A stretch of DNA of 64,000 nt from Gammaproteobacteria bacterium (lineage in GTDB: Bacteria; Pseudomonadota; Gammaproteobacteria; JADZEE01), in the NCBI GenBank assembly GCA_050183625.1, contig JBFXBD010000014.1, positions 14,545-78,544 of the forward strand. Direction: 5' to 3'. The stretch's first letter is position 1. Each line of letters starts with the position of its first letter. The translations under genes and the position numbers were made by a program. Shown here one piece after another: positions 27,793-60,082 of this stretch. The notes under the pieces were generated by a model, which did not search any database, was not told the DNA's origin, and saw only the letters and a program-made list of their open reading frames with translations.

Positions 27793-27832
27793 ACGAGGTA
27801 ATCCGGCAATTTAAGTATCGGTCCGTTTCCTG

Positions 27833-34324: not shown

Positions 34325-34414
34325 GACTCGTGCGGCTCGCTTTCTTGCGGTGGATTCAGGCGCCGCGCCGCCGCCCGGGGCCGTCCCCGACCCGGAAGGG
34401 GCGCCCGCCCGGGC

Positions 34415-35818: not shown

Positions 35819-35852
35819 ACGGCGTTCACCACGAATTCAGGGAAAGAGCGGC

Positions 35853-35858: not shown

Positions 35859-35935
35859 GCGCCGCGCGCAACGGAACGTTTCGCGGCGCCGGTGCATGCG
35901 CTAGCATGGCGCGCCCGCCACAGGAGGATGAACGC

Positions 35936-36445
35936 ATGTTCCGCAGGATCCTGCCCGCCGTACTGGCTACCGCCCTGCTCGCGATCGCGGCGCCCAGCCG
36001 GGCCGATTTCAACGACGGCGCGGTCGCCTATTCGATGGGCGACTACGAACGTGCACTGCAGACGCTGCGGCCACTGGCGGAAACCGCCAATCATGCGTAC
36101 GCGCAGTACTACCTGGGCGTGATGTACATGAACGGCCAGGGCGTGCCGCAGGACTTCAAGCAGGCGGCGAAATGGTTGCGCTCGGCGGCCGAGAAGGGCG
36201 TGTCGTCGGCGCAGAGCAAGCTGGCCCAGCTCTACATCGACGGGCGCGGCGTCCCCAGGGACATGGAATTCGCCTTCGCCTGGCTCAGCACCTCGGTCAA
36301 GCTCGGCAATGCCCGGGCCGCGGCCATGCTCGAACAGGCGCGCGCGAAAATGAGCGCCGGCGAGCTCGCCCAGGCCGAGAAACTCGCCGCGGAATACGTC
36401 GCCCGCTACGGCACCGTGCCGAAGGAAACCAGCCGGGCGCAGTGA
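35936..36445 (+). CDS. Sel1-repeat (TPR-like) exported protein
   Basis: Last 169 aa of listed ORF 33644..36445. AGGAGGA RBS at 35922-35928. Signal peptide MFRRILPAVLATALLAIAAPSRA. Sel1 repeats YYLGVMYMNGQGVPQDFKQAAKWLRSAAEKG and KLAQLYIDGRGVPRDMEFAFAWL. Confidence 0.85.
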   Translation: MFRRILPAVLATALLAIAAPSRADFNDGAVAYSMGDYERALQTLRPLAETANHAYAQYYLGVMYMNGQGVPQDFKQAAKWLRSAAEKGVSSAQSKLAQLYIDGRGVPRDMEFAFAWLSTSVKLGNARAAAMLEQARAKMSAGELAQAEKLAAEYVARYGTVPKETSRAQ

Positions 36446-36929: not shown

Positions 36930-37661
36930 TCAACCGAGCTTCTGCATCAGGCCGGAGAGGTTGGACAGCGACAGCAGGTGGGCGTAGACGAGATCCATGA
37001 ACCCGCGCCCGACGAGATCCTGCAATCGCTCGCCCGGCAGCGATTTCAGGCGGTCCCGGCTTACGCAGGAGAACCCGGCGAGCGAGAACTTCTCGCCGGT
37101 CTTCATCTCCACGTTCGCCTGCACCGGCTCGAGCAGCGCCAGTTCGACCAGCAGCCGGCAGAACTCGGTCGTGACCTGCGTCTGGCGCTGATAGTCCTTG
37201 AGGAACTCGACCGACCGCGCCAGCAGCGCTCCGTGGCTGCCGTCGTCGTTGATCAGCCGCTCGCCTTCCTTGACGGTATTGAACCCGGCGTAGCTCTCGT
37301 CGATGCAGACCGTGAAATTGGCTCCGGTGGAATCCGCGGCGAGGATGAACGGATAGCGCCGGACATAGGCCGGCACGTAGCTGCCCTTCCAGGTCCCGTC
37401 GGCGGCGAGGAACAGGTTCTGCTCGGGCTTCAGGCCCAGCAGCACCACCGGTACCACTGCATCGCCACCCGCGGCCGCGAATACGATGGCGTACTCGCGT
37501 GCGGCCACCGGGAACTCGATGCCCGCCACGTAGACGCAGTTGGTCCTGGCCGCGAATCGAAAGCCCGGATCCGGGTCCACGTACCAGGCGCCATGCCGCT
37601 CGCGCGACAGTGGCACGACCTTGCGGTAGAACAACGGCAACTGCGGCTGCGGCTCGGCCAT
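36930..37661 (-). CDS. SapC family protein
   Basis: 243 aa. LPLFYRKVVPLSRERHGAWYV, NCVYVAGIEFPVAAREYAIVFA, YVPAYVRRYPFIL match my recollection of the SapC (PF07277) family. The ATG lies 13 nt after the TpsA stop, and a GGAG RBS sits inside that gap. Confidence 0.75.
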   Translation of the reverse strand: MAEPQPQLPLFYRKVVPLSRERHGAWYVDPDPGFRFAARTNCVYVAGIEFPVAAREYAIVFAAAGGDAVVPVVLLGLKPEQNLFLAADGTWKGSYVPAYVRRYPFILAADSTGANFTVCIDESYAGFNTVKEGERLINDDGSHGALLARSVEFLKDYQRQTQVTTEFCRLLVELALLEPVQANVEMKTGEKFSLAGFSCVSRDRLKSLPGERLQDLVGRGFMDLVYAHLLSLSNLSGLMQKLG

Positions 37662-37674: not shown

Positions 37675-40600
37675 TCAGTAGCTGCGCAGCGCGCGCGGCA
37701 TCGTCAAATCGCCGGTGAACACCACCGGGCGCATGGCACCGGCGTCGAACCAGGGCCACGCATTGACGTCGGCCGACGGCACCGGAACCATCGGAGTCGC
37801 ATCGGCATCGTCGAACTCGCCGCCGGAGCCCTGCTTCGGCGCGGGTGCCGGAGCCGGCGCGGGCGCCTCCGGAGCCGTCGCACCGGGCTCGGGCTGCGCG
37901 CCCGCGGGCGGGTTGCCCTCCTCCGGCACGTCCCCCGGCGGGCTGCCGCCATCGTCGAATTCCCCACCCGGGGCGGCATCGTCCGAGCCGCCGGAACCGT
38001 CGTCGAACTCGCCGCCACCCTCGTCGAACTCGCCCGCGCCCTCGCGTTCGCTGAACGCGGCAAGCTGCTGGCGCAGGGCCTCGAATCGTGCAATCTGCTC
38101 CCGGAAGCCGGCGATGAGCTTCTCGACCCGCTCCGGATCCTCCTTGCCGGCGGCACGACGCTGCTCGAGCTCGGCGATGTTCGCCTGGATCTTCTCGACC
38201 AGCGGCCCGATTTCGTCCTCCGTGATCGCCGGGCCGCAGCCCTCGAGCTCTTCGCACTGTTCCGGCGGCATGCCGATGGCGAAGCCGATCTGGCCGATGA
38301 GTTCCAGCTCCTGTTCGAACACGCTGATGTCGATGAAGCCTAGCTGCGCCAGCGCCTCCAGGCCGGTGCTGATCAGGCCGAGGAAACCCTGGACCTGCCG
38401 CAGGTTGGAGAACACTTCCGCGCCCAGCAGGTTGCGCAGCGACTGCACCAGGGCGAGATCGTCGCTGTTGAAGGCGGTCGCGTTCGCGCTCGAGGAGGCC
38501 TCGAAGCGCGGCTGCTCCGCGGTGGAGGAGGCCGCGATGTGCGCCTCGCCTCCGCTCAGGTCCAGGCGGATATTGCTGCTGTTGGCGATTTCGTTGTTGG
38601 CGATGATGGTCGCGAAACCGGCTTCGAGCACGGCCACGCCGGCCGCCGGCCCGGTGATGTCGCCGGGGCCGTCGGCCACTGCCTGGCCATTGGCATCCTG
38701 GCGCACCCCGACCGCGATCAGCGTCAGTGCATCGCCGCGCGCGCCGCCCGCGCTGAGGCTGGCATTGAGGTCGATGTTCGCCGCCAGCAGCGTCAGCGGC
38801 CCACCCGAGCGCAAGCCATCGTTGACGGTGATGCGGCTGGCGGTCAGCGCGGTGACGTTCTGTTCCTCGGCCGGCGACTCCATCGGCTTTTCCAGCGCAC
38901 CGCCGATGATGAGGTGGCCGGTGAAGCCGTTCCAGATATTGCCGGGGATGCGGCTCGCCAGGTCACCGGCGTTGGCAATGGTGAGCGTCGCGCCAGCGGC
39001 CGGCACGATGGCCAGGTTGCCACTGCCCAGCATCACCGCCGGGAATACGATGGTGCTGTTGCTGGAGCGCAGGATGACGTCGCCCGAGACGTTGACCGCG
39101 GTTGCGTTGAACGCCAGCGTCGCGGCCGAGATGTCGTTCGACAGGGCGACCGCGCCGGCGGTGAAGCTCAGGCCCGCGTTCGGCTGGTCCGTCATCGGGC
39201 CATTGATGGCGATGTTGCCCGCCCCGGCGTTGAACGCCACCGCGCCGGTACGCGTGATGGTCGCGCCCGGTGCGCCAAGCACGAGATTTCCGCCGCCGGT
39301 CGTAACCGCATTCAGGCCGGCGCCGGCAAGAATGTTGAGGACCGGTGCGATCAGGTTCGTCGCCCCGCCGGCGCCGGAAATCGCGCCGTTGAGGTTGATG
39401 GTGCCGGCGTTGACGTTGAAATTGCCTCCGTCGTAGCTCACCGCCTGGTTGATTGCGACCGCCGCCCCGCCGGCGTCGATGTTGGCATTGCCACCACCGC
39501 CGGCGGTGTTGATCCCGCCATTCAGGGTGATGCCGCCCGGACCGGACAGTGCAATCGAGCCGCCGGCGGTCGTCAACGTCCCGGCGGTGGTGGTGATCGC
39601 ACCGCTGGAGATCACGTTGAGGTTATTGGCGCCGGTGTTCACGCTCGAAGCGATGCTGGTCGCGCCGCCGCGGATCGTCAGGATCCAGGGCAGGACGGCC
39701 GGGGCCGGAGCGCCGATATTGACGTTGACCGCGCCGCCATCGGCCCGGCCGATCACCAGGGAGCCGATGCCGCCGATCGCGGCGAGATCGTTGTTGCCGA
39801 CCGTGAACTGGCCGGCACCGGAGCCGATGCCGACGGTCGCGCCGGCCGCCGCCGGCTGCAGCGTCAGCACGCCGGTTCCGGCGTAGGTCACCCCTGCACC
39901 GAAGGTGACGTCCACCGCCGATATCGTGCGGCCCGCGCCGCCGTTGGCGACGTTGCCATTGAAGGTGACCGTGCCGCCGGTGCTCGTCAGGTCGCCGAAC
40001 AGGTTCTGGATGGTGCCGCCGTAGGTCTGGTCGCCCGAGGTCGTCACGGTACCGAACTGCATCGCCGCACCGTTCAGCGTCAGCGTCGTCAGCGGCGCCG
40101 TGTTGCCGACGTTGCCCAGCACGATCTGGCCGGCGCCGCCGTTGGCGGTCGCGGTCAGGCTGAACGCACCGTTGACGTTCTCCAGCGGGGCGAGAATGGC
40201 ACCCGCGCTGGTCAGCGTACGGTTGCCGGTAAGCGTGATTGCGTCGCCGTCGGCGAGGCCGGCCAGGCCGATGTTGCCGACACCGGTCGTGACGTCGCCG
40301 TTCAGCAGCAGGGCGCCGCCGCCGATGACGTTTACCGTGCCGACGTTGACCGTCTCGATCTGGATGGTGCCGGTTCCCGCGTTCAGCGCCAGCGTGCTGC
40401 CGGCACCCTGCACGGTGGTATTCGTCCCGCCGTTGGCACCCAGGTTCAATGTTGCGCCGGTTGCCGAGGAATCGAAGGTGACTGCGCCGGTGAGATTCAC
40501 CGTGGCCGCATTGCTCAGATCCAGTCCGCCGGTCGCCACGGTTCCGGTCGGTGTCGCGCCGTCGTTGGTCAGGCCGTTGATGGCAATGACGTTGTTGTCG

Positions 40601-43600
40601 AAATTGAGAGGGATGCCGGCGGCGGTCGACAGGCCACCGACGTTGGCATTGATGCCGGCGGCGAAGTTCACCGCCGTTGCACCGTCGATGGTCAACTGGC
40701 CGAGCGGGCCGCCGATGATGGGTATCGCACCCGTACCGAGGCTGCCCAGGAAGTCAATCGCGCCGGTCGCGCTCAGGCGCACGCCGTTGAACTCGTTGAT
40801 GGCGCTGGACAGCGTGCGCTGGAACTCGATCCTGCCGCCGGTGGAGGTGATCTGTACGCCTGCGGCCACCGGCGCGGTCGGATCGACGATCACGTCGTTG
40901 TTGAAGATGAGATCGCCGTTGACGGTGATCGCGTTGGTCACCACCTGCGCGGTGCCGGTCAGCGTCAGGCTCGGTCCCGGCAGGATGGCGGACGGACCAT
41001 TCACCGAGCCGCTCAGGCGGATGATCCCCAGCGGCGTCTGCAGTTCGAGCGGGTCGTGAACGCTGATCGCGCTGAGATCGGCGTCGATCAGGTGCGAACC
41101 GGTCACCGGTGTGCCGATGATGATCTTGAGGAACCCGTCCTTGATGGCGGCGAAATCGGTCGGCGAGATGTCCACCGTGCAGGTGCCGAGGCAGGCACTT
41201 GCCGGGCTGCCCAGGCCGATGCTCGCGCCCACGGACAGGGAGCGCAGCGTGATGGTGCTCGCGCCGGGCCCCGGCGCGACCGCGGTCGACCGGACCGAGT
41301 CGACACCACTGGTGATGGCGATGTCGCCATCGGCGGCGACCTCGATGTTCTGCCCGTCGACGACCTGGATGCCGGTGACGGTACCGATGTCGTCGGTGAC
41401 CGAGCCGATCGTGACGCCCGACTGATCGAACACCTGGAGCGAGCCGCCGGCCATGTCGGCCGCGATCGTCGTGAAGTCGTTGTTGACGTCGGCGAGGACG
41501 ACGTTGGCGCCGGCGCGGATGAGCAGGCCGCCGACGATCTGCACCGAACCGGTCTGGGTGATGCCCTGCGCGGTGTTCAGGCTGAGCACGCTGGACGCGA
41601 ACTGTGGCGGCGCGGCGATGGTGCCGAGCGTGATCGCGCCCGAATCCGCCTTGCCCAGGCGCACGTTCTGGGCCCGGATCGAATCCGCCTTGGCGATGTT
41701 CAACGCGCCCGCGCCGCCGGACAGGCCGATGGTCACGGCCGCCGAAGTGGGCTCGATGCGTACGCGAGTTGCTGCGCCGGAGCCGATGCCCGAGCCGCCG
41801 ATCTGCGCGGAGGCGACGACGGTGCCGGAATCCCCCGTGAGATCGATGTTGCCGGTGGACAGCACCGCGGAATTCGCCTGCAGATCGATCGCGCCCGTGC
41901 CGGCGTTCAGGGTGACGGTCTGGGCATTGCCATTGACGACGTTGCCGGTCAACACCGTGATGCCGGTGGCGTTGGCGGTAAATGCGCCGGTGGACACCGA
42001 GCTCAGCAGGTTCAGGGCCCCGGCACCGCGCAGGCTCACGCGTCCGCCGGCCGTGGTCGTCGTACCGACCTGCGCGCCCGCGGCGAAATCCAGCGCGTCC
42101 GCACCGACACCTGCCGCGCCCTCGATGTTGCCGGCGGCGGTCAGGAGGATGGAGGTTCCGGCAGTGATGTCGGCCAGGTTGTCGTTTGCGTCGTCGACGA
42201 TCGTGCCGGTCGTGGCCGTGAGCGTCGCGCTGCCGGCGGCGGTCACCGTGCCGACGACGATGTTGCCGGCGTCGCTGGTAACGGCGAGGTTACCGGCGCC
42301 GTTCTGCACCAGGCTGGTCAGGGTCAGGCCGTCCGTCTCGCGCAGCAGCAGCGGGCCGTTGTTGGCGGTCGCGGTGATGCTGGCGACCGTGGTGCGCAGG
42401 GGGAGCCCGCCGATGCCGAGCCCGGCGGTCAACTGCGCGTCGGTGGCCGTAATGCCGGCGCCGCCGCCTTCGGAAATGGCGCCGGTCGTGGCATTGAGCG
42501 TGACGACGTCCGGTGCCGACACGGCGACCACGGTGATGTCGCCCGCGGCGGCGTTCACGACGACGTCGTTGCCGGCGCCCGCGGCGTTCAGCGAGGTCAG
42601 CACGATGCCGTTCTGCTCGGCGACGAAGATGCCGCCCGCGCCCGCATTCGCGGTCAGTGTGGTGAGCGAGGTTCCGATCGGGTTGGCGAGCGTGCCGACG
42701 GCGTTGGCGGCCGTCAGGATGGCGTTGGACGCCGTGATGAAGGTCGCGCCGTTGCCGTCGTCGACGATGCCGCCGCCGGTCGCGTTCAGCGCCACCGCGT
42801 TCGGCGCGTTCACGGTGCCGACGGTGATGTTGCCGGTCGCCGCCGACACGGAGATGTCGTTGCCGGCACCCGCAGCCGTCACCGTGCCGATGACCAGCGC
42901 GTTCGCCTCATTCACGAACACGCCGCCGGCGGCGGCCGAGGCATTCAACGTGCCGACGTCTGTGTCGATGTCGTTGACCGCCAGGCCGATGCCGCCATTG
43001 GCAACCAGGTTGGCGCTCTGCGCCGTGATGCCCGTGCCGTTGTTGCCGTCGTCCAGGATCGAGCCGAACGCGTTCAACGTCAGGTTGCCGTTCGCGAGCG
43101 TGATGCTGTCGACGATGATCCCGTCCTGCTCCTGGAACTGGGCGTCGCCGGCGCCGGTGACGGCAGCGGTGATGCGAAGCACCTGGATTTCCAGCGCGTC
43201 GGCCGCGCCGATACCGGAGCTGGCGCCCAGCATTGCACCGCCGATCAGCGCGGAGATATTGGAAACCGCGCCGTTGCCGTCGATGATCGCGCCCGAAGTG
43301 CTGGTGATGCTCACCGCCGCATTCACGCCGCTGGTGCTCACCAGGCGCCCGAGCGTCACGCTGCCGTCGGAGAGCAGGGTAATGGTGCCAACGCCGGCGT
43401 CGAACAGCGACACGCCCATCGTGACGGCGCCGCCGTTGTTTCCGGCGGCGTTGTCCGCGGTGACGGAGATGTCCCCACCGCCGCTCGTGACCACGGCTGC
43501 GGCACCGAACTGCGCATGGCGATTGGCCGTGATGGTCACCGCGCCGGTCGCGGAGATCTGGTCGTTGACGACGATGTCGGTGGCCGCGCCCGCGGCCGCC

Positions 43601-46600: not shown

Positions 46601-49600
46601 GCGTCGTCGAAGGCACGCGGCTGGCCGACGCCGGAGCCCACGCGCGGCGCCGAGCGCGGCGGGCCGGTGATCGCGTCCGTGCCCAGGAGCACGTCGCCGA
46701 CGAAGTTCAGTGTCAGGTTCGCGCTGATGATCTGCGGAATGCCGGTGATCGTGTTGTTGTCCAGGTAGTCGGCGCTGCCGTCCATGAAGACGTTGTCGAC
46801 GCTGACCGAACCGGCCGCCGCGCGCAGCACCGAGTTCACTGCATCACCGAGCGGATCGCCGGGCGTGGGGATGTGGCTCGGAGGAATGCCGGGGGTGCGC
46901 TGGCCGTCGTTGAGCACGGTGAAGCCGCCGGTGGCGACGTCGGTGACGATATTGCCGGTATCCGCCTGCACGGCGCGCTCGGCGACGTTGTAGCCGGGAT
47001 TGCCGACCACGTTCGTCGTCGTCGAGCCCAGGTTCGGCAGGCCGGTGGTGACCACGGCGATGTTCGCGTTCAGGGCCGTGCTGGTCAGGACGATGTTGCC
47101 CGCCTGCGCCAGGATGTTCGATTCGATCCAGATCGAGTAGTTGTTCGCATCCGTGCCGGCTTGGGAGCCGCCCGCCGACACGTTCATGGCGTCGGTCACC
47201 GCCTGCCCGCGCAGGATGATGTCGCCGCCGGCGGAATCCGTCGGGCCGCCGGGGTTGAAATCTCCGATTTCCACGCCAAGTTCAATGAACCCGGACGCCG
47301 TGGCCGCGAGCGAGTTGGCGATGAAGGCGTCGGCCGTCAGCGCCAGGTTCTGCTTGATGGTATCGGCGATGCTGATGCTGAAGTTCTTGACCGTGGTGAT
47401 CTTGACGTCGCCCAGCGGTTGGACGGTACCGACCCTGGCGCTGAAGGTCACGTTGCCGCTGCCGGCGCCGACCGTCAGGTTGCGTGTGAAAGGCGCGTCC
47501 CCGTCCACCGTGCCGCCGCTGGCGAACAGCAGGTTGTTGTCGGTGGCGCCGTCGGTATCGACGGTGACGTTCTGACCGAGCACGACGCCACCGGTGAAGG
47601 TCAGCGTGTTGCCGCCCTGGTCGTCGACCTGGAGGGTCTGCGCCGCGGCGGCGTTGAAGTTGATGGTCTTGGCGGTGGCGTCCAGGTCGGCCAGCGCGCC
47701 ATTGCCCCCGGTGCCGACGTTGCCGGAGAAGTTCACCGTGCCGCCCGACGCGCTGACGCTCAGCGTCCGGTCGTTGACCGTGCTGTCGTCTGCATTCACC
47801 GTCGAGGTGAACGAGACCGTGCCGCCGTTGTTCGAGTTGACCTGGACGGCGCCCCCGAGGACCAGCGGCCCGTTGAAGGCGACCGTGCCGCCCGTGCCGG
47901 TGGTCGTTCCGGCGCCGCCGGAGGCGTCAATCGTGCCGGATACCACGGCGATGTTCGGGCCTGCGTCGATCGTGATCGCGCCGCCGTTGCCGCCGGCGGC
48001 ACCGGTGCCGTCGCCGCCAATCGCGGTCGCGTTTGCCACTCCAATCGTGCCGACGGCGGCGGTCAGGCTGATGGTGCCGGCCGCGAATCCCGCACCGGCG
48101 CCATTGTCGGCGCCGCTGGCATCGATGCTGCCCGTGAGGACGAGATCGCTCGCCGCGCCCGTGGCCGCGATGGATATCGAGCCTCCGGCGCCCGCCCCGA
48201 CCGATTCGATCGTGTTGCCGGCATTGGCGATGTCGCCGGCGGCGGTGATCGTAATCGCACCGCCCGCGGTATGGATGCCACCCGCGCCGACGTTCAACGC
48301 ACCCAGGCCGCGCAGCCGGATCAGCCCGCCGGTGGAAGACGCCGTCACGGAGGAACCCGCCGCGAGGTCGAGGAAGTCGTCGGCAAATGCCTGGCCGTCG
48401 ATGTTTCCGCTCGCGGACAGCGTGATCAGGCCACCGGCCGTGATGTCGGCGATCGTGTCGCTCGCGTGGTCGCTGATGGTCCCGGCAGCCGCGGTCACGG
48501 ACACCGTGCCGGTGGAATCGATGCGCTGGATGAGCGCGTTCGCGGCCGACTGCGTGATCGTCACCGCGCCGACCGCGGCGGTGACGCCGATGTCGTAGGT
48601 AGTGTTTCCGACCGAACCGACGTCGGTCATGAACACCGCCTGGCCACCACTGTCGAACACGCTGACGGCGCCGACGTCGACCGTCAGCGGATTGCCCCCG
48701 GTACCGATGGCACCCGCGTTGGTCTGCATCAACAACTGCCCGCTCGCCGATACGGTCTGGAACGCGGTACCGACACCCGCATCGGTAATCGTCTTGCCGG
48801 CCGTCTCCGTAACCAGGAACAGGTTCTTGGCGAATGCCGTTGCGCGGTCGATGATGATATTGCCGGCGACGGCGATGATCTTGATGGTGGGCTGGACGCT
48901 CGCGCTCGCCGCCAGCGCGTCCATCTGCAGATCCGTCAGGGTGATGGTCGCCGTCGAATCATCGCCCAGATGGACGTCGCCGGTCTTGAACTCGCGCGTG
49001 AATACGCTGGAGACAATCTGCGGGAACTTGATGTCGTCGAGCTTGTTGCCCAGGACGTAGTCGCCGTCGCCGCTAAGACGGACTTCCGTCAGCACACCGC
49101 CGTTGGCGACCAGCCGCGTGTTCTTGCCCTGGTTCGCCAACGTCGAAGCACCGACATTGGCATCCTCGAGGCGCACCCGCGCGCTGCTGCCAAGCAGCGA
49201 AATCGTGATATTGCCGTTGCCTGCGGTGACGTCCCGGTTTTCCGGCAGATCGCCGGCGCCGCCGGCCCCTGCGCCCGTCATGCCGGTGACCGAAACGCGC
49301 ACGTCGTTGCCGCTGCCGGTGGAGGTCAGGGCGATGTCGCCGTTCGTGGCCGTGATGCTGGCCTGGATCAGGATGGCGTCGGCGCCGCTGGCGCCGCTGG
49401 TGGTGAGATCCAGCGTGTTGCTGCCGTTGGTGCCGGTCAGTTGCACCGGCCCGCCCGTGCCGCCGGCGCCGCCGAAACGGACGAACCCGGTCAGCGTGCC
49501 GGACTTCAGGGTATTGGCGACGAATTTGTCGTCGATGAGCAGGTCGCGCCCGCTGCTGACGAGCACGTCGCCGAGCGCGACCGTCCCGCCCACCTCGCCG

Positions 49601-52600
49601 GCGACGCTGATGTCCCCGGTACCGGCCACGAGCGTCAGGTTCTGACCACCGTCGACCGTGCCCGTGAAGTTGATCGCGCCGTTGTTCGAAGTCAGCGTCA
49701 CCGCGCCGGAAGAGAGCGTCGTGTCACCGAAGCTGATGCCGTCGAAGCTCGACCACGCCAGGCCGTCGAACGTCACCGTCCCCGCCAGGGTCGTGCCGGT
49801 ATTGCCATTGCCGAGCGTGACGTCGCCGTCGAAGCGCACGGCGGATGTGGAGCCGGCAGCGGAGAGGCCGGAATTCGCTCCCACCGTGCCCTGGAAGCGC
49901 ACCAACCCGGTGACGCCGTTCGCCACCGTCAGCGCCGCGCCGGTGCCGTCGCCCAGGTTGGAAACATTGCCGGTTACCGTCGTGGTGCCGGACCCGACTC
50001 CGGCCGCCAGCGTCAGATCCCGGCTGCCGCCGTCGATCGACGCAATCTGAATGTTGCCGCCGTTGGAATCCAGCGTGACGTCCGCGCCCGAGAGCGTCAG
50101 CGCGCCGGTGGTCAGGCCATCGAAGCCCGACCAGGCCAGGCCGTCGAGCTGCACCGCAGCGAGCGTCGTGCCGGTGTCGCCATCGGTCAGGGTGACGTTG
50201 TCGTCGAAACGCAGGCTGGTCCCGGCCTGGGCATTGATGCCCGAATTGGCGCCGAACGTGCCCTGGAACCGCACCAGCCCGGTGACGCCGTTCGCCACCG
50301 TCAGCGCCGCGCCGGTGCCATCGCCCAGCGCGCTCACGTTGCCGGTCACCGTCGTCGTGCCGGCACCGATGCCGGCCGCCAGCGTCAGATCCCGGCTGCC
50401 GCCGGCGATCGAGGCAATCTGAATATTGCCGGCGTTGGAATTCAGCGAGACGTTGCCACCCGACAGCGTCAGCGCGCCGGTCGTGAGCCCATCGAAGCCC
50501 GACCAGGTCAGCCCGTCGAAGGTGACGGTGATGAGCGTCGTGCCCGTGTCGCCGTCGGCCAGCGTCACGTCGTCGTCGAAGCGCATGATCGTGCCGGCCT
50601 GGGCCGTGATGCCCGAGTTGCCGCCGAACGTGCCCTGGAACCGCACCAGACCGGTGACGCCGTTCGTCACCGTCAGTGCCGCGCCGGCGCCATCGCCGAG
50701 GTTGGCGACGTTGCCGGTCACGGTCGTCGTGCCGGCAGCGATGCCGGCCGCCAGGATCAGATCCCGGCCGCCGCCTGCGATCGAGGCGATTTGAATATTG
50801 CCGCCATTGGAATCGAGCGTGACGTCCCCGCCCGACAGCGTCAGCGCACCGGTGGTCAGGCCGTCGAAGCCCGACCAGGCCAGGCCGTCGAGTTGCAGCG
50901 CGGCGACCGACGTCGCGGTATCGCCATCGGCCAAGGTGACGTCGCCATCGAAGCGCAGGCCGGTCCCGGCCTGGCCATTGATGCCCGAGTTGGCGCCGAA
51001 CGTGCCCTGGAACCGCACCAGCCCGATGACGCCGTTCGTCACCGTCAGCGCCGCGCCGGTGCCATCGCCCAGGTTGGATACATTGCCGGTCACCGTCGTG
51101 GTGCCGGACCCGACTCCGGCCGCCAGCGTCAGATCACGCCCACCACCGGCGATCGAGGCGATCTGAATGTTCCCACCGTTGGAGTTCAGCGTGACGTCGC
51201 CGCCCGAGAGCGTCAGCGCGCCGGTGGTCAGGCCATCGAAGCCCGACCAGGCCAGGCCGTCGAGTTGCACGGCGTCCAGCGTCGTGCCGGTGTCGCCATC
51301 GGTCAGGGTGACGTTGTCGTCGAAGCGCAGGCTGGTCCCGGCCTGGGCATTGATGCCCGAATTGGCGCCGAACGTGCCCTGGAACCGCACCAGCCCGGTG
51401 ACGCCATTGGCCACCGTCAGCGCCGCGCCGGTGCCATCGCCCAGCGCACTCACGTTGCCGGTCACCGTCGTCGTGCCGGCACCGATGCCGGCTGCCAGCG
51501 TCAGATCCCGGCTGCCGCCGGCGATCGAGGCAATCTGAATATTGCCGGCGTTGGAATTCAGCGAGACGTTGCCACCCGACAGCGTCAGCGCGCCGGTCGT
51601 GAGCCCATCGAAGCCCGACCAGGTCAGCCCGTCGAAGGTGACGGTGATGAGCGTCGTGCCCGTGTCGCCGTCGGCCAGCGTCACGTCGTCGTCGAAGCGC
51701 ATGATCGTGCCGGCCTGGGCCGTGATGCCCGAGTTGCCGCCGAACGTGCCCTGGAACCGCACCAGACCGGTGACGCCGTTCGTCACCGTCAGTGCCGCGC
51801 CGGCGCCATCGCCGAGGTTGGCGACGTTGCCGGTCACGGTCGTCGTGCCGGCAGCGATGCCGGCCGCCAGGATCAGATCCCGGCCGCCGCCTGCGATCGA
51901 GGCGATTTGAATATTGCCGCCATTGGAATCGAGCGTGACGTCCCCGCCCGACAGCGTCAGCGCACCGGTGGTCAGGCCGTCGAAGCCCGACCAAGCCAGG
52001 CCGTCGAGTTGCAGCGCGGCGACCGACGTCGCGGTATCGCCATCGGCCAGGGTGACATCGCCGTCGAAACGCAGGCTGGTACCGGCCTGGCCATTGACGC
52101 CCGAGTTTGCGGCGAACGTGCCCTGGAACCGCACCAGCCCGGTGGCACCGTTCGCCACCGTCAAGGCCGCGCCAGCGCCGTCGCCGAGATTGGTGACATT
52201 GCCGGTCACCGTCGTCGTGCCGGCACCGATCCCGGCCGCCAGCGTCAGATCGTGCGGTCCGGTCAGGGTCGACTGGAAGGCGATGCTGCCGCCGCCGCTG
52301 TTGATCGACAGGGAGGTCGCGAGCACCACCGGCGCCGAGAACGTGATATTGCCCGTAGTGGCGATGTTGCCGTTGAGCGTCGCCGTGCCGGTCGCGCCTG
52401 CGCCCTTGCCCGTGGTCGTGACCGACAGGCCGGTCAGCGCCGCTGGTGTACCGACCGCACCCAGGGTGACGTTGCCGCCGTCTTCGTCGGCGTCGGCGCT
52501 GTCGGCGCTGGTATCGATCACCAGCGTCTGCGCGCCGCTGACTGCCGAGGTACCGAACAGCACGTCGCCGGCCGCGGTCGTACCGGCGGCCGCATCGGTA

Positions 52601-54630
52601 TCGAGCGTCACGCCGGCGCCCAGGACCACCGCCGTCGCGCCGGTGAAATCGATGTCGCCGCCGCCGTCGACGCTGACATTGCCGTTCAGCGTGACCTGCG
52701 CGCCCGAGGCCTTGAACGACGCGAGCCGGGCCGTGCCGCCGACCGTGCCGAAGGTAACCGTCCCGGTTCCGGCAGCGAGCGTGAGGTTCTCGGCTCCCGC
52801 GCCGGCGTTCCCGTCGATCGTGCCCTTGATCGCGATGTTGCCGCCGGTGGCGCCGCCGGACAGCGTCACGGTCGCGCCGTCGGCGAGGGTCACATTGCCG
52901 TTCTTGGTGTTGCCGAGGGTGAGGTTGTTGTTCTTGAGGGTGATGTTCGCGCCGTTGCTGAACGCAATCGTGTCGGCGTCGAGTTCGAGGCTTTTCGAGT
53001 TGGCGTTGGCGCTGGCGTCGATCGCCGTCTGCACGTTGATGGTGACGTTCGCCTGCAGCTTGACGTTGACGCTGTCCAGCTCGCTGACGACCTTGCCGGC
53101 GCTGATCGTAAAGGTGCCGGCGCCGCCGTCGGCGAACAGGATTTCGCCGCGCGGACCTCCGACGTTCGGGACATCGACGTTGAGTTGGGCGTCGTCGGTC
53201 GTGGTGGCGCCGATATTGATGACGTCCGGATCCAGCAGCAGGCTCGCGGCCTGGACGTGCCCGTCGTACAGCAGATTCCGCTTGCCCGATACCTCGACGT
53301 CGCCGCCCTTGCCGGACTGCGCGCCGCCGCGCGAGGCGATGCTGCCGTAGTAGCGCGTGGTGTCGTTAGACCACACCACGACCCTGCCGCCGTTGCCGGA
53401 TTCGAGCGCGCTGGCGTCGATCGTGACACCCGCGCCGACATAGGCGAATTCGGCGTTTCGGATCGCCGGGTTGGAACCCTGGAAATCGCCGCCGACCAGG
53501 ATCGTGCCGCCGCCGAGCTTGCCGGATGCATCCACCACCACGTCGCCGACCAGGCCGACCTTGCCGCCCAGCAGGTGAATCGTACCGCCGGAACCGTTCG
53601 CATCGGCCGCCGAGATCCGGGCGCCGTCGCCGACGATGGTCGTATCCGACGACTGCACTTCGACCGTACCGCCGCCGCTGGCGTCGAGCGTGCCGGTATT
53701 GACGACGCTGGCTTCCGGCCCGCTGCCGGACAGCCGGATCACGCCGCCCTGGTTTTCGATCCGCGCGGCGCGGATCACGCCGCTGTTGTTGATGGCACGG
53801 TCGAACACGCCCTGGGCCGTGGAAGCGGACAGCAGCACCTGGCCGCCGGCGGCGTCGATCGTGCCGCTGTTGGATACCGCGGCTTCGGCGCCGGCGGGAT
53901 TGTCGAGCACCGCCTCGTCGACCGCGAAGCGCATGAGGCCGTCGCCGTCGAAATCCAGCACGACCTTCTGCCCGGACACCAGGTTCACGCGCCCGGCGCT
54001 GGCGAGGATCACGCCCTGGTTGCTCACGCTCTTGCCGACCAGGGTCACCGAGCCGCCGGTGGCGGCCTGGATGGTGCCCTGGTTGATGACGGTGCCGTCG
54101 GCGCCCGGCAGCGCATCGAGCCGGTAGCGCCCGGCCATGAAGTCGGCGGCGTCGATGTTTGCGCCGGCGGCGACCAGCGCGCCCACGTTCACCTGCGCGG
54201 TCGGGCCGAACACCACGCCGTTCGGGTTCATCAGGAACACGCGGCCGGTGGCCTGCAGGCGGCCGTAGATCTGGCTCGGCTGCTGGTCGTAGATGCGGTT
54301 CAGTGCCGATGCGGTGGAATTGGGCTGATCGAAACGGACCAGTTCGTGGGCTGCGACGTTGAATCGGGACCAGTCGAGCGCGAGATTCTGGGAAGTCTGC
54401 TGAATGAGCGTGGTGCTGGCATCCGGGCGGGTGATGCTGCCCTGGCCCGCGACCACCGTGCCGCCTTCCGGGCCGGCGAACACGGCGCCGGCGTGGGCAC
54501 CGAGCAGCAGGCCGGCGGCGGGCAGGCAGGCGCCGCGCACCTGAGCGGCCAGGCGCGACAGCCTGAAGGGGTTCGGATCGGGCGCCGTGCGGACGGGGGT
54601 CGTCGGTCTGCGATGCGGTTTCGTGTTCAT
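37675..54630 (-). CDS. giant two-partner-secretion exoprotein (TpsA, filamentous-haemagglutinin-like beta-helical adhesin), 5651 aa
   Basis: Single uninterrupted ORF. N-terminal signal region, then a TPS/haemagglutination-activity domain (GQGSITRPDASTTLIQQTSQNLALDWSRFNV ... RVFLMNPNGVVFG). Thousands of residues of G/A/T/V/N-rich beta-helix-type repeats. A cognate TpsB gene lies immediately upstream. Confidence 0.9.
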   Translation of the reverse strand: MNTKPHRRPTTPVRTAPDPNPFRLSRLAAQVRGACLPAAGLLLGAHAGAVFAGPEGGTVVAGQGSITRPDASTTLIQQTSQNLALDWSRFNVAAHELVRFDQPNSTASALNRIYDQQPSQIYGRLQATGRVFLMNPNGVVFGPTAQVNVGALVAAGANIDAADFMAGRYRLDALPGADGTVINQGTIQAATGGSVTLVGKSVSNQGVILASAGRVNLVSGQKVVLDFDGDGLMRFAVDEAVLDNPAGAEAAVSNSGTIDAAGGQVLLSASTAQGVFDRAINNSGVIRAARIENQGGVIRLSGSGPEASVVNTGTLDASGGGTVEVQSSDTTIVGDGARISAADANGSGGTIHLLGGKVGLVGDVVVDASGKLGGGTILVGGDFQGSNPAIRNAEFAYVGAGVTIDASALESGNGGRVVVWSNDTTRYYGSIASRGGAQSGKGGDVEVSGKRNLLYDGHVQAASLLLDPDVINIGATTTDDAQLNVDVPNVGGPRGEILFADGGAGTFTISAGKVVSELDSVNVKLQANVTINVQTAIDASANANSKSLELDADTIAFSNGANITLKNNNLTLGNTKNGNVTLADGATVTLSGGATGGNIAIKGTIDGNAGAGAENLTLAAGTGTVTFGTVGGTARLASFKASGAQVTLNGNVSVDGGGDIDFTGATAVVLGAGVTLDTDAAAGTTAAGDVLFGTSAVSGAQTLVIDTSADSADADEDGGNVTLGAVGTPAALTGLSVTTTGKGAGATGTATLNGNIATTGNITFSAPVVLATSLSINSGGGSIAFQSTLTGPHDLTLAAGIGAGTTTVTGNVTNLGDGAGAALTVANGATGLVRFQGTFAANSGVNGQAGTSLRFDGDVTLADGDTATSVAALQLDGLAWSGFDGLTTGALTLSGGDVTLDSNGGNIQIASIAGGGRDLILAAGIAAGTTTVTGNVANLGDGAGAALTVTNGVTGLVRFQGTFGGNSGITAQAGTIMRFDDDVTLADGDTGTTLITVTFDGLTWSGFDGLTTGALTLSGGNVSLNSNAGNIQIASIAGGSRDLTLAAGIGAGTTTVTGNVSALGDGTGAALTVANGVTGLVRFQGTFGANSGINAQAGTSLRFDDNVTLTDGDTGTTLDAVQLDGLAWSGFDGLTTGALTLSGGDVTLNSNGGNIQIASIAGGGRDLTLAAGVGSGTTTVTGNVSNLGDGTGAALTVTNGVIGLVRFQGTFGANSGINGQAGTGLRFDGDVTLADGDTATSVAALQLDGLAWSGFDGLTTGALTLSGGDVTLDSNGGNIQIASIAGGGRDLILAAGIAAGTTTVTGNVANLGDGAGAALTVTNGVTGLVRFQGTFGGNSGITAQAGTIMRFDDDVTLADGDTGTTLITVTFDGLTWSGFDGLTTGALTLSGGNVSLNSNAGNIQIASIAGGSRDLTLAAGIGAGTTTVTGNVSALGDGTGAALTVANGVTGLVRFQGTFGANSGINAQAGTSLRFDDNVTLTDGDTGTTLAAVQLDGLAWSGFDGLTTGALTLSGADVTLDSNGGNIQIASIDGGSRDLTLAAGVGSGTTTVTGNVSNLGDGTGAALTVANGVTGLVRFQGTVGANSGLSAAGSTSAVRFDGDVTLGNGNTGTTLAGTVTFDGLAWSSFDGISFGDTTLSSGAVTLTSNNGAINFTGTVDGGQNLTLVAGTGDISVAGEVGGTVALGDVLVSSGRDLLIDDKFVANTLKSGTLTGFVRFGGAGGTGGPVQLTGTNGSNTLDLTTSGASGADAILIQASITATNGDIALTSTGSGNDVRVSVTGMTGAGAGGAGDLPENRDVTAGNGNITISLLGSSARVRLEDANVGASTLANQGKNTRLVANGGVLTEVRLSGDGDYVLGNKLDDIKFPQIVSSVFTREFKTGDVHLGDDSTATITLTDLQMDALAASASVQPTIKIIAVAGNIIIDRATAFAKNLFLVTETAGKTITDAGVGTAFQTVSASGQLLMQTNAGAIGTGGNPLTVDVGAVSVFDSGGQAVFMTDVGSVGNTTYDIGVTAAVGAVTITQSAANALIQRIDSTGTVSVTAAAGTISDHASDTIADITAGGLITLSASGNIDGQAFADDFLDLAAGSSVTASSTGGLIRLRGLGALNVGAGGIHTAGGAITITAAGDIANAGNTIESVGAGAGGSISIAATGAASDLVLTGSIDASGADNGAGAGFAAGTISLTAAVGTIGVANATAIGGDGTGAAGGNGGAITIDAGPNIAVVSGTIDASGGAGTTTGTGGTVAFNGPLVLGGAVQVNSNNGGTVSFTSTVNADDSTVNDRTLSVSASGGTVNFSGNVGTGGNGALADLDATAKTINFNAAAAQTLQVDDQGGNTLTFTGGVVLGQNVTVDTDGATDNNLLFASGGTVDGDAPFTRNLTVGAGSGNVTFSARVGTVQPLGDVKITTVKNFSISIADTIKQNLALTADAFIANSLAATASGFIELGVEIGDFNPGGPTDSAGGDIILRGQAVTDAMNVSAGGSQAGTDANNYSIWIESNILAQAGNIVLTSTALNANIAVVTTGLPNLGSTTTNVVGNPGYNVAERAVQADTGNIVTDVATGGFTVLNDGQRTPGIPPSHIPTPGDPLGDAVNSVLRAAAGSVSVDNVFMDGSADYLDNNTITGIPQIISANLTLNFVGDVLLGTDAITGPPRSAPRVGSGVGQPRAFDDAEMAALFSSQNITVNVTGGDIVIDRTAPAFGGGGQNLTLNAANGLIRDNSSGVAFQTSGTLTLTSAGTIGIDNTDTNPDVGHGTNNADGILIVNVGALTITGTGGNDVAVTSTGGVGNTTWNVATGGAGNVALVQQAANALIGAISTTGTVNVTATAGDILDDADDTTTDITAGGLITLSAGGNIRGPGPGDAFLDLANGSQVTATSTGNGAIQLRSPNTLTIAAGGINTGGGAIGLKATTITLNGNLVSGGGAATVDATTTKLGINPVTVNTDDGVGGGGNASFTGAIDATAAGAQGLTVKAGKGDVTFSGKIGNGTKIQNLAVTARDITVSQSIATAGNGTVTFTNSGTLALAAAADMSLDGAFLQDGTGAVSTAADITTTADDITFQSAVTFTGAVALNSAGGNILFGSTLDAGGNDLALSAAIGAGTTTFTGAVTNLGDGTGPALNVAAGVTGLVRFQSTLAGASGITAGAGTSLRFDGNVTLGNGDTGTTLATVQFDGLNWSSFDGITLGATTLSGGSVSLDSNGGNISIASLTGGSQNLTLAAGVGSGTTTFTGAVTGLGSGTGAALTVANGVTGLVRFQNTLAGTSGISAPGATSQFRFDGDVTLADGDTATAIAGTVRLDGLNWSSFDGIDFGATTLSGAAVTLNSNGGNIQIASIAGGGQNLALVAGIGAGTTTVAGAVSNLGSGTGAALDVAAGVTGLVSLQGTFGANSGIVGGAGTTLRFEDNVTLATGDTATALANVQLDGLTWTGTGFNQMTFGPTKLSGGAVSITSSNKNIVLGTVDGAQALTLTAGTGVVQFTGAVGGTTPLASFTIASAGAEDLSQAITTTGDITVSATSIAVNGQLTTQGAATGTLTLGGGGITLNVNPSVGSGNITLNGAGDDVVINANVIQNVNFGIAADRDIIINAIVQTTGGSSLQLLADNGQDGPTVGGAPDGSGGIWVKPAGQVLAGSSLLMTGSDIFDPTATVPTAGVLIDAGATVQAGTTVTINQQAAAGAATDIVVNDQISATGAVTITANRHAQFGAAAVVTSGGGDISVTADNAAGNNGGAVTMGVSLFDAGVGTITLLSDGSVTLGRLVSTSGVNAAVSITSTSGAIIDGNGAVSNISALIGGAMLGASSGIGAADALEIQVLRITAAVTGAGDAQFQEQDGIIVDSITLANGNLTLNAFGSILDDGNNGTGITAQSANLVANGGIGLAVNDIDTDVGTLNASAAAGGVFVNEANALVIGTVTAAGAGNDISVSAATGNITVGTVNAPNAVALNATGGGIVDDGNGATFITASNAILTAANAVGTLANPIGTSLTTLTANAGAGGIFVAEQNGIVLTSLNAAGAGNDVVVNAAAGDITVVAVSAPDVVTLNATTGAISEGGGAGITATDAQLTAGLGIGGLPLRTTVASITATANNGPLLLRETDGLTLTSLVQNGAGNLAVTSDAGNIVVGTVTAAGSATLTATTGTIVDDANDNLADITAGTSILLTAAGNIEGAAGVGADALDFAAGAQVGTTTTAGGRVSLRGAGALNLLSSVSTGAFTANATGITVLTGNVVNGNAQTVTLNAGTGAIDLQANSAVLSTGNIDLTGDSGTVVASAQIGGSGIGSGAATRVRIEPTSAAVTIGLSGGAGALNIAKADSIRAQNVRLGKADSGAITLGTIAAPPQFASSVLSLNTAQGITQTGSVQIVGGLLIRAGANVVLADVNNDFTTIAADMAGGSLQVFDQSGVTIGSVTDDIGTVTGIQVVDGQNIEVAADGDIAITSGVDSVRSTAVAPGPGASTITLRSLSVGASIGLGSPASACLGTCTVDISPTDFAAIKDGFLKIIIGTPVTGSHLIDADLSAISVHDPLELQTPLGIIRLSGSVNGPSAILPGPSLTLTGTAQVVTNAITVNGDLIFNNDVIVDPTAPVAAGVQITSTGGRIEFQRTLSSAINEFNGVRLSATGAIDFLGSLGTGAIPIIGGPLGQLTIDGATAVNFAAGINANVGGLSTAAGIPLNFDNNVIAINGLTNDGATPTGTVATGGLDLSNAATVNLTGAVTFDSSATGATLNLGANGGTNTTVQGAGSTLALNAGTGTIQIETVNVGTVNVIGGGALLLNGDVTTGVGNIGLAGLADGDAITLTGNRTLTSAGAILAPLENVNGAFSLTATANGGAGQIVLGNVGNTAPLTTLTLNGAAMQFGTVTTSGDQTYGGTIQNLFGDLTSTGGTVTFNGNVANGGAGRTISAVDVTFGAGVTYAGTGVLTLQPAAAGATVGIGSGAGQFTVGNNDLAAIGGIGSLVIGRADGGAVNVNIGAPAPAVLPWILTIRGGATSIASSVNTGANNLNVISSGAITTTAGTLTTAGGSIALSGPGGITLNGGINTAGGGGNANIDAGGAAVAINQAVSYDGGNFNVNAGTINLNGAISGAGGATNLIAPVLNILAGAGLNAVTTGGGNLVLGAPGATITRTGAVAFNAGAGNIAINGPMTDQPNAGLSFTAGAVALSNDISAATLAFNATAVNVSGDVILRSSNSTIVFPAVMLGSGNLAIVPAAGATLTIANAGDLASRIPGNIWNGFTGHLIIGGALEKPMESPAEEQNVTALTASRITVNDGLRSGGPLTLLAANIDLNASLSAGGARGDALTLIAVGVRQDANGQAVADGPGDITGPAAGVAVLEAGFATIIANNEIANSSNIRLDLSGGEAHIAASSTAEQPRFEASSSANATAFNSDDLALVQSLRNLLGAEVFSNLRQVQGFLGLISTGLEALAQLGFIDISVFEQELELIGQIGFAIGMPPEQCEELEGCGPAITEDEIGPLVEKIQANIAELEQRRAAGKEDPERVEKLIAGFREQIARFEALRQQLAAFSEREGAGEFDEGGGEFDDGSGGSDDAAPGGEFDDGGSPPGDVPEEGNPPAGAQPEPGATAPEAPAPAPAPAPKQGSGGEFDDADATPMVPVPSADVNAWPWFDAGAMRPVVFTGDLTMPRALRSY
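44230..45345 (-). repeat. tandem array B: 3 more diverged copies of the same 124-aa module
   Basis: DLALSAAIGAGTTTFTGAVTNLGDGTGPALNVAAGVTGLVRFQSTLAGASGI... repeated three times, starting at D codon 45345-45343. Confidence 0.8.
49649..52252 (-). repeat. tandem array A: 7 x 372-nt (124-aa) modules inside the TpsA gene
   Basis: Unit consensus DLTLAAGIGAGTTTVTGNVSNLGDGTGAALTVANGVTGLVRFQGTFGANSGI..AGTSLRFD.DVTL.DGDTGTTL..VQLDGLAWSGFDGLTTGALTLSGGDVTL.SNGGNIQIASIAGGGR. The first unit starts at the D codon 52252-52250. The 372-nt period also shows up as regularly spaced antisense ORF boundaries (50051, 50426, 50798, 51167, 51542, 51914). Confidence 0.9.
53640..54483 (-). other. TPS secretion domain of the TpsA (approximate limits)
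   Basis: Residues ~50-330 carry the conserved NLALDW/RFNV and NPNG motifs needed for TpsB recognition in characterised TpsA proteins. Confidence 0.7.
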
Positions 54631-54774
54631 AAGCTGACTGCCCTCGTTACACCCGCGCTGCGGTCCTGGGCCTTTCGGTCGGCGCGCCGGTCAGGAGCAC
54701 GTCAGGAAAGGCCCGGCGCCGGATCGATGCTAGGTTGCACCCATGGCTCCGTCCGTGACCCGATTCACACGTGG

Positions 54775-57869: not shown

Positions 57870-58262
57870 GGCATTGTTCACGGGTGTCTCCAGGAACGTG
57901 GGGCGCAGCAACGGCCGGCGCATGGCAAATCCGGCGTTCAAATCGTAGAATCCCGGGCAATGTGTCGCGGCTGCGACTGCCAGAAGATTATTTTGTTATT
58001 CTAAAGAATGTTCCAGGCATTAGTTCAATCTGTTTGGAAAATTCCACGATCCCTGGCGTACGCGTCCGCGAGCGCGGCACCCGGGCAAAAGCAGTGGATG
58101 GGGGGAGATTCTGCATCCTGGCCGCGCCGGGGAGCGGCGCGCCGTCGCCACCGCAGCCGGCGAATGACCCGTGGCGGATGCCCCATGATGGGTGAAGTCG
58201 CGTCGATTCGTCGGAATCGCCCGGCCCGGGCCGGTACCTAGGAGCGCAGCAACCGCACGTTC

Positions 58263-60050: not shown

Positions 60051-60082
60051 AGCGCCGACCGATACCGACGAGGGGACCGATC

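Follow-up and report, generated by a model that had tools for sequence, protein, structure and literature searches.

Two-partner secretion (TPS) exoproteins are commonly classed as adhesins, cytolysins, iron-scavengers or toxins of contact-dependent growth inhibition (CDI). How the non-toxin giants among them stay on, and talk to, their cell is to our knowledge understood for a few pathogens only (FhaB, HMW1, CdrA). Where does the 5651-aa product of tpsA on the gammaproteobacterial contig JBFXBD010000014.1 belong: is it a CdiA that delivers a toxin, or a fibre kept on the cell that makes it? The gene was analysed within a stretch of 64,000 nt of this contig, here called the window, to which all positions and strands refer. 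The results suggest a real secreted fibre rather than a toxin-delivering CdiA, one that is cell-anchored and possibly a signalling filament. The overall picture, a beta-helical fibre tethered to the producing cell by a periplasmic module with a Cys loop, is considered rather probable.

The giant TpsA and its C-terminal module

The gene, its export signals and its transporter were located as follows.

37675..54630, minus strand: tpsA, a single open reading frame (ORF) with a third-codon-position GC content (GC3) of 0.90, encoding a 5651-aa TPS exoprotein (545 kDa, isoelectric point 4.05)
54475..54630, minus strand: putative N-terminal signal peptide region (aa 1-52), ...LLLGAHAGAVFA/GPEGG, assigned by eye from the translation
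53716..54447, minus strand: TPS secretion domain (aa 62-305) with NPNG motif (PF05860, E=9.6e-38; TIGR01901, E=7.6e-23)
54775..56604, minus strand: tpsB, an Omp85-type transporter with POTRA_2 and ShlB domains (Pfam), found at the same position in relatives

The frame of tpsA was uninterrupted from its ATG start, without a single internal stop in either the ORF listing or the translation. GC contents at codon positions 1, 2 and 3 were 0.63, 0.55 and 0.90, respectively, and the GC3 value identifies the minus strand as the coding one. An antisense ORF of 5591 aa (38539..55314, plus strand) was weighed as a possible gene but proved to be a shadow ORF, its codons being in register with those of tpsA and its GC content peaking at position 1 (0.895). 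The mirror frame of tpsA lacks stops because TTA, CTA and TCA are nearly unused, occurring once in 5651 codons (CTA at aa 5430).

The N-terminal segment of the translation was hydrophobic and is predicted to be a Sec signal. The NPNG motif of the TPS domain appeared in the context LMNPNGVVFG, and the first 510 aa were 40-59% identical to many proteins named 'filamentous hemagglutinin N-terminal domain'. The gene tpsB was located 144 nt upstream. The product is thus a bona fide type Vb TpsA with a cognate TpsB, as a preliminary description of this DNA had claimed from the letters alone and as PF05860, TIGR01901 and the POTRA_2/ShlB neighbour now confirm.

The other end of the protein displayed a module with the following features.

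38026..38973, minus strand: conserved core (aa 5220-5535), delimited by HMMER relatives, their alignment (A1) and an AlphaFold2 (AF2) model
38236..38256, minus strand: invariant Cys-x5-Cys loop QCEELEGC (aa 5459-5465), from A1 columns and Cys positions
37801..38055, minus strand: acidic Gly/Pro-rich linker (aa 5526-5610) with four EFD(D/E) motifs and APAPAPAPAP, preceded by a coiled coil (translation)
37678..37800, minus strand: extreme C-terminus, a type A tail, ...WPWFDAGAMRPVVFTGDLTMPRALRSY-COOH; W.GD..LP...R(R)Y/F stands at the very end of many relatives

Along the core come GHLIIGG, the last beta-helix turns, F.D..FE.EL.L.G.IG, the Cys loop and a helical hairpin or coiled coil. Invariant columns of A1 were G19, G24, D215, F219, Q239-C240-E241, G245-C246 and P248, and its signature reads GHLIIGG ... 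F.D.GLFEE.L.LFG.IG.GIA..L.QCEE.EGCAP.VT..EL..LI..LEARI.ELE. Comparable acidic linkers rich in F, D and E were present in relatives. The tails fell into three types.

Type A tail: ...W.GD(I/V).LP...R(R)Y/F-COOH, in the window (...VVFTGDLTMPRALRSY) and many loci from metagenome-assembled genomes (MAGs)
Type B tail: an extra helical segment ending ...YGPSLL........WY, in many MAG loci
Type C tail: ending ...IIESTL..AEARIE.ML.G., in Hylemonella, Marinospirillum, Natronospirillum and Saccharospirillum

When the last 451 aa were compared with 1.84 billion representatives in an exhaustive HMMER search, 103 proteins passed E<=1e-3, and for 30 the value was E<=1e-30. Word-indexed searching returned nothing for the last 421 aa, almost certainly because low-complexity words filled its candidate list. 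In the 103 clusters the match always lay at the C-terminal end of large, often fragmentary proteins, and 101 loci in species-representative genomes carried the module. Four full-length relatives of 3300-3377 aa (P0127, P0132, P0161 and P0164) matched the window TpsA at both ends, with 38-48% identity over 430-860 residues of the TPS region and 29-37% in the C-terminal module, while their middles were unrelated or only partly related. Another relative, P0121, was colinear with aa 3805-5651 at 36% identity. The window TpsA displayed every part by which the family is defined, namely the TPS N-terminus, the core signature and the coiled coil, acidic linker and tail.

The AF2 model built on A1 (predicted local distance difference test, pLDDT, 81.5) predicted beta-helix turns up to about residue 165, followed by helices including a long antiparallel hairpin. 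A Foldseek search of the PDB found no match to this fold at E<0.001, its top rows being helical-hairpin noise, and neither the model nor that search disclosed an enzyme or toxin fold. The module sequence was likewise without a match in Pfam, NCBIfam or the PDB.

Conservation was compared by region in the 14 closest locus pairs (loci carry L numbers, single relatives P numbers) and in five pairs that included the window, the shaft being taken as the 800 aa before the core. Core identity exceeded shaft identity in 13 of the 14 locus pairs, L063/L066 (87 vs 91) being the exception, and in all five window comparisons. Examples are given below as percent identity.

L042/L054: shaft 39%, core 80%, tail 74%
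L022/L024: shaft 35%, core 74%, tail 72%
L005/L007: shaft 36%, core 73%, tail 57%
L082/L083: shaft 60%, core 88%, tail 91%
Window/L004: shaft 38%, core 46%, tail 30%

Polymorphic toxins, those of CDI included, have a conserved shaft and lose similarity abruptly after a pretoxin motif. As the reverse was found here, the C-terminus should be regarded as a conserved family module and not as a variable toxin.

SapC and the CdiA alternative

The toxin question can also be asked of the motifs. A regular-expression search of the TpsA translation found no VENN, NxxLYN, LYVN, DAMV or related pretoxin motif, and Pfam and NCBIfam found neither PT-VENN (PF04829) nor Fil_haemagg nor any toxin family in it; the absence of a VENN-type motif, already noticed in the preliminary description, thus held under both approaches. 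FHA-1 and FHA-2 repeats (PF05594, PF13332) gave no match at E<=0.01 when the whole protein was searched as six non-overlapping segments. Among the profiles which that description had named for a search (PF05860, PF13332, pretoxin and toxin families), only PF05860 was found. Downstream of tpsA, Pfam detected no orphan toxin/immunity cassettes among the window genes, and PADLOC reported no defence system at the locus, only generic matches to the cyclase and kinase domains of neighbouring genes.

The gene that follows tpsA was identified as follows.

36930..37661, minus strand: sapC-family gene, 243 aa, no signal peptide (PF07277, E=3.5e-66; AF2 pLDDT 86)

PF07277 is named after SapC. The gap between the tpsA stop and the sapC start measured 13 nt and contained GGAG as a ribosome-binding site. 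The neighbouring genes of the window were searched by tblastn against 84 fetched loci, and the counts given here and below use the 80 genome loci among them (L005-L084). In 58 of the 80, SapC was encoded immediately after tpsA. In most type A loci its start fell between -7 and +35 nt from the tpsA stop, with L010, L013 and L080 at +74 to +144, and it was absent from type C loci. Identities across loci were 47-68%, and 1776 homologues were detectable. An exact-sequence look-up of the SapC protein gave no recorded entry. Measured against the window, SapC was more conserved than the C-terminal module, with 68% vs 46% in L004 and 56% vs 43% in L007.

These data bear on the proposal that the product is a CdiA-like CDI protein whose module is a new, possibly pore-forming or membrane-active toxin, with SapC as its immunity protein. 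The order tpsB-tpsA-small ORF does resemble cdiBAI, SapC starts 13 nt past the tpsA stop and overlaps that stop in several relatives, and neither the module nor SapC has a known fold or function. The proposal is nevertheless very improbable: besides the missing pretoxin motifs, FHA-1/FHA-2 repeats and orphan cassettes, the C-terminus was kept across about 100 clusters and several orders and exceeded the shaft in conservation between relatives, and its model consists of a beta-helix, a coiled coil and a disordered acidic linker. SapC, for its part, lacks a signal peptide, belongs to a large Pfam family, surpasses the module in conservation and is dispensed with by the type C members. Unlike an immunity gene, sapC is a conserved companion whose start is coupled to the stop codon of tpsA. 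The preliminary description was right that no immunity-like ORF follows tpsA; the SapC gene, which it took for merely the next gene, proved to be more than a neighbour.

Nested duplication, size and assembly

Repeated segments were distributed along the body of the protein as follows.

49789..52395, minus strand: tandem array 1, seven modules of 124 aa (372 nt) with a 3-unit (1116-nt) higher-order repeat (repeat search, Tandem Repeats Finder (TRF), marker motif)
44365..45414, minus strand: tandem array 2, three more modules of 124-126 aa (same three sources)
48031..48921, minus strand: long module copy 1 (aa 1904-2200), DITAGGLITLSA...LDLAAGS.VTA (self-comparison, DITAG)
45661..46605, minus strand: long module copy 2 (aa 2676-2990), 48% identical to copy 1 (DITAG)
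42007..42579, minus strand: long module copy 3 (aa 4018-4208), 31-36% identical to copy 1 and 34-39% to copy 2 (DITAG)

TRF reported a period of 372 nt, 6.7 copies, 83% matches and a score of 3353 at 49738-52251. The marker DGL.WS.FDG was found at aa 880, 1004, 1128, 1252, 1376, 1500 and 1626 in array 1 and at aa 3182, 3308 and 3432 in array 2, which is exactly seven plus three at a spacing of 124-126 aa within arrays. The DITAG segment of the long module lay at aa 2062, 2846 and 4154 (window 48447, 46095 and 42171), in surroundings of about 200-300 aa that were mutually 35-48% identical; the motif of copy 3 was also encountered in P0121. Both repeat claims of the preliminary description, a 124-aa module occurring seven and then three more times and a longer segment recurring three times (at 48.4, 46.1 and 42.2 kb by the present positions), were reproduced.

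TpsA has thus grown by nested internal duplication. Shifted by 1116 nt, array 1 matches itself without a single difference over 500 nt and with more than 97% identity over about 790 nt, which indicates recent duplication or gene conversion; this higher-order repeat occupies window 51275-53200 (gene nt 2569-3356 vs +1116). The 124-aa cassette was also found outside the window. Relative L032 displayed at least 14 tandem copies at 378-nt spacing (located at about 1-5400 and beyond), 67% identical to the window module, and L062 carried copies (4420-5631) at 58% identity. As the C-terminal modules of L032 and the window were only about 36% identical, the cassette is more conserved than the protein ends. 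The cassettes thus behave as shared, possibly exchanged building blocks, with a hint of cassette exchange or strong selection.

The 1116-nt higher-order repeat raises the possibility that the extreme length is partly an assembly artefact, through mis-joining or mis-counting of the 1116-nt unit or of the two separated arrays. Because the near-identical stretches exceed typical short reads, the copy number of array 1 could have been mis-assembled from such reads, and many database relatives are assembly fragments labelled 'partial'. The frame, by contrast, stayed open through every junction, the units elsewhere differ enough (83% matches) to anchor an assembly, and relatives possess equal or larger genes or, as L032, more copies of the module. 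Such an artefact is improbable, and an error would alter the copy number only; the open frame and the nature of tpsA are not in doubt even if copies were miscounted.

Sizes in the tpsA family varied between about 3300 and about 7250 aa. The lower end was represented by the genes of P0127, P0132, P0161, P0164, L010, L011 and L082; in 32 loci the frame stayed open for at least 3333 aa before the C-terminal module, and seven of these loci came from records titled 'chromosome: 1'. The gene of L002 reaches about 7250 aa, split into 471+1163+5624 by frameshifts. The 'unusually large' of the preliminary description is therefore relative: 545 kDa falls inside the published TpsA range of about 100-650 kDa (PMC5422565) and is typical of the family.

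Partner genes, site of action and known systems

Upstream of tpsB and downstream of sapC, the window contained further genes that recur beside relatives of tpsA.

56859..57923, minus strand: membrane-anchored parvulin-type peptidyl-prolyl isomerase (PPIase; Rotamase_2, Rotamase, Rotamase_3), upstream of tpsB and at the same position in L001-L003 and L086
58263..59165, plus strand: class III nucleotidyl cyclase fused to a forkhead-associated (FHA) domain (Guanylate_cyc + FHA), first gene of a divergent operon
59268..60050, plus strand: PP2C phosphatase, second gene of the divergent operon (Pfam; tblastn in related loci)
60032..64000 and past the window end, plus strand: Hanks-type Ser/Thr kinase with predicted transmembrane segment and long extracytoplasmic region (Pkinase, aa 210-439)
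35906..36445, plus strand: exported Sel1-repeat protein, convergent with tpsA-sapC, a candidate system member or syntenic neighbour (Sel1 domain; synteny)

The cyclase-FHA protein was 76% identical in L001-L003 and 52-56% identical in type C loci. The kinase translation contained a transmembrane-like segment, NPFVIGGALLVVAAVAGTPQMI, and kinase orthologues ended in an FGE-sulfatase domain. The arrangement PPIase-TpsB-TpsA with the divergent trio of cyclase, phosphatase and kinase was shared by the window, L001-L003 (TPS 59% identical) and L086. In ten type C loci, from genomes of the Hylemonella/Marinospirillum type (Natronospirillum and Saccharospirillum included), the trio instead followed tpsA and a small paralogue directly and shared their strand. 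That the linkage recurs in two gene orders, in Beta- as well as Gammaproteobacteria, makes a good case for a functional connection between TpsA and the trio. The named cultured carriers are all spirillum-named or spirillum-shaped (the same four genera; L063, L066, L073-L075, L077, L081-L083), Hylemonella having formerly been Aquaspirillum gracile; this may be coincidence. L062 is labelled Leptospira sp., yet displayed the tail type and gene order of the Hylemonella loci L063 and L066.

On the other side of the locus, 58 of the 80 loci carried Sel1 on the opposite strand and 47 a gene for a leuC-like large aconitase subunit, usually right after SapC. In the window, leuC/leuD-like aconitase-family genes lay at 33689-35836 (minus strand), downstream of tpsA. 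Such synteny suggests that the neighbourhood is chromosomal, old and shared by a large clade of Gammaproteobacteria. GC content across tpsA was 0.68-0.71, compared with 0.67-0.73 in the flanking 2-kb intervals (sole exception 0.63 at 26001-28000), and by this measure tpsA displayed no compositional anomaly or island signature. Together with the even composition, the Sel1/leuC-like synteny across many MAGs speaks for a locus long resident in the chromosome, in contrast to CDI islands. A 2045-aa hybrid histidine kinase (5457-11594, plus strand) with many PAS domains, HisKA/HATPase, two receivers and Hpt was without apparent link to the TPS genes.

The preliminary description is upheld in part. 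Its view of an adhesin or fibre grown by duplication, and not a CdiA, agrees with the conserved C-terminus and the repeats, the adhesin half being a role that the product may have; it missed the conserved C-terminal module, the PPIase gene and the cyclase-FHA/PP2C/kinase operon.

Where the module acts is indicated by its stand-alone copies. In type B and C loci, the ORF right after tpsA encodes a protein of 170-215 aa with a Sec or lipoprotein signal peptide (lipobox LSGC in L075), which carries a paralogue of the Cys-loop-helix region, GIALSLAQC-x5-C...E...L...L..RI, followed by an acidic tail rich in F, D and E. It matched TpsA modules of many loci by tblastn at E<=1e-6 and that of the window by blastp at 6e-6. 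Such genes were located at 11307-11900 in L016, 11294-11893 in L044, 11284-11871 in L054, 11122-11766 in L063, 11091-11735 in L075 and 11082-11597 in L073; none was found in the window. The existence of an exported stand-alone copy speaks for this type of domain working outside the cytoplasm, and since the small protein lacks a TPS domain, the periplasm is its most likely site. The protein has a second cysteine pair besides that of the module.

41179..41193, minus strand: Cys-x3-Cys pair (aa 4480/4484; Cys positions), with a C-x3-C also in P0121 (GGECGGTCSYS)

The mature protein of about 5600 residues has only this pair and the C-terminal one (aa 5459/5465), the latter invariant across the family. 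So few pairs, one of them invariant, fit structural disulfides. Processing of the LapG type was considered for the AAG within RRAAGK and rejected, the motif being variable among relatives and LapG/LapD genes being absent.

In established TPS export, the TPS domain docks on the POTRA domains of TpsB after Sec export. Applied to this locus, TpsA would pass the Sec system and dock with its TPS domain on the POTRA domains of the adjacent TpsB, and the polypeptide would be threaded out to fold into a very long beta-helical fibre of duplicated cassettes rich in Gly, Ala, Thr and Asn. Its end would comprise the last beta-helix turns, the Cys-x5-Cys helical domain, the coiled coil, the EFDD acidic/proline linker and the aromatic-ended C-terminus, and this module would stay in the periplasm as a stopper or anchor and as an interaction platform. 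The fibre would thereby stay fixed to the cell that makes it, as an adhesin or a filament of the matrix type. The membrane-anchored PPIase may chaperone the unfolded giant in the periplasm, SapC, cytoplasmic and translationally coupled, may act as a dedicated accessory factor, and the trio may control secretion as a post-translational gate or else sense the state of the fibre.

Several points weigh against this picture. The central 4700 aa of TpsA gave no informative family match (only weak DUF6927 and DUF5649 in Pfam), NCBIfam matched TIGR01901 alone in the whole protein, and neither library identified an adhesive or ligand-binding domain in it; its adhesin role is putative. The AF2 model covers the last beta-helix turns only and the body of the shaft would be beta-helical by extension; periplasmic retention and disulfide formation are matters that we infer. 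The SapC model, built from database homologues, found no Foldseek match in the PDB at E<0.001, its predicted fold appearing uncharacterised despite more than 1700 homologues. Linkage to the trio was seen in a limited number of loci with the relevant flank. Finally, about 190 aa separate the Cys loop from the end of TpsA, whereas that of HMW1 and HxuA is placed within the last 20-66 aa (66 in HxuA), and the Pro-rich/acidic linker and conserved tail resemble the FhaB prodomain by published description only.

The trio also invites a reading in which the fibre serves above all a trans-envelope signalling device, as its extracellular arm, adhesion being the input and not the end function. The module would then contact the periplasmic part of the kinase through EFDD and the extreme C-terminus, the FHA domain of the cyclase would read the phosphorylation and convert it into a cyclic-nucleotide output, and PP2C would reset the system. 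The two gene orders (divergent upstream, and downstream in ten loci) are in its favour, as are the transmembrane segment and long extracytoplasmic part of the kinase, the FGE-sulfatase-type domain of its orthologues and the proposal that full-length FhaB is a transmembrane sensor through its periplasmic proline-rich region (PRR) and extreme C-terminus (ECT) (PMC4542190). However, the link could reflect co-regulation only, and in L085, where tpsB-tpsA-sapC is present, the 10 kb upstream of tpsA do not contain the trio. Regulation of secretion would be just as plausible a role for the trio, in the manner of the Ser/Thr phosphorylation pathway of type VI secretion (PMC5995506). The reading is doubtful as it stands. 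It is likewise only tentatively that the whole TpsA family might be seen as the arm of an unrecognised trans-envelope sensory system, with a module reporting contact or tension to the Hanks kinase, an FHA-gated cyclase, PP2C as reset and SapC as cytoplasmic factor. If true, this would be a type Vb counterpart of the type VI Ser/Thr phosphorylation pathway, but with a second-messenger output.

The tethered fibre, preferred here, gives the locus a wider meaning. It defines a widespread environmental family of about 100 protein clusters and about 100 species-level genomes, mostly of uncultured Gammaproteobacteria, with members in the cultivable genera Hylemonella, Marinospirillum, Natronospirillum and Saccharospirillum. 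An un-annotated conserved module and a fixed set of partners, including a eukaryote-like kinase, phosphatase and FHA-cyclase, offer a testable model of C-terminal anchoring, and possible signalling, by type Vb fibres. The module signature is a candidate domain for family databases, and the locus warns against automatic annotation of a giant tpsA with a small downstream ORF as CDI. The TpsA/TpsB kind itself is known; the subfamily, with its C-terminal module, small paralogue, SapC coupling and kinase/phosphatase/FHA-cyclase linkage, appears undescribed: a limited literature search yielded no account of it, nor any publication on a link between TPS systems and FHA/PP2C/kinase genes.

Among known systems, CdiA and BcpA are TpsA proteins of 180-650 kDa and resemble the window system in their very large size and in the order tpsB-tpsA-small ORF. 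They differ by their pretoxin motif, FHA-1/FHA-2 repeats and orphan cassettes, whereas the window has a conserved C-terminus and a SapC-family gene downstream. With FhaB/FHA of Bordetella, the window TpsA shares a TPS domain, a cognate Omp85 transporter, a long, putatively beta-helical shaft and a non-toxin C-terminal region. Fil_haemagg and Fil_haemagg_2 repeats were not detected in it, unlike FhaB, and it further differs by its length (5651 aa vs about 370 kDa) and by SapC, PPIase and the kinase trio as accessory genes. If some 5000 of its residues are beta-helical, its filament would greatly exceed FHA (roughly 50 nm) in length. We know of no Cys loop and coiled coil in FhaB like those of the window module. 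FhaB is a preproprotein of about 370 kDa whose periplasmic prodomain, composed of PRR and ECT, controls maturation and signalling (PMC4542190).

Like the window TpsA, HMW1/HMW2 and HxuA of Haemophilus influenzae have very few Cys residues apart from a conserved pair towards the C-terminus. According to PMC5422565 (citing Buscher 2006), the C-terminal disulfide loop of HMW1 and HxuA locks the TpsA on the periplasmic side of its transporter TpsB, and the protein is thereby retained on the cell. The loop of the window is embedded in a module of about 430 aa with coiled coil and tail, and no sequence similarity to HMW1 or HxuA was detected. CdrA of Pseudomonas aeruginosa, exported by CdrB, is a giant TPS adhesin retained on the cell by a periplasmic tail which LapG cuts under cyclic di-GMP control (PMC5422565). 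The window system is likewise a giant TPS fibre with a putative periplasmic tail and linked second-messenger genes, although it lacks LapG and LapD, its signalling genes being the class III cyclase-FHA, PP2C and the Hanks kinase. A SapC gene is also found beside the secretion genes for large S-layer proteins in Campylobacter sapCDEF (bioRxiv 10.1101/2024.07.26.605372), which, unlike the window, is a type I secretion system. By analogy, then, the window TpsA may share the logic of parts of FhaB, HMW1, HxuA and CdrA, as a likeness of design and not as established membership in those families.

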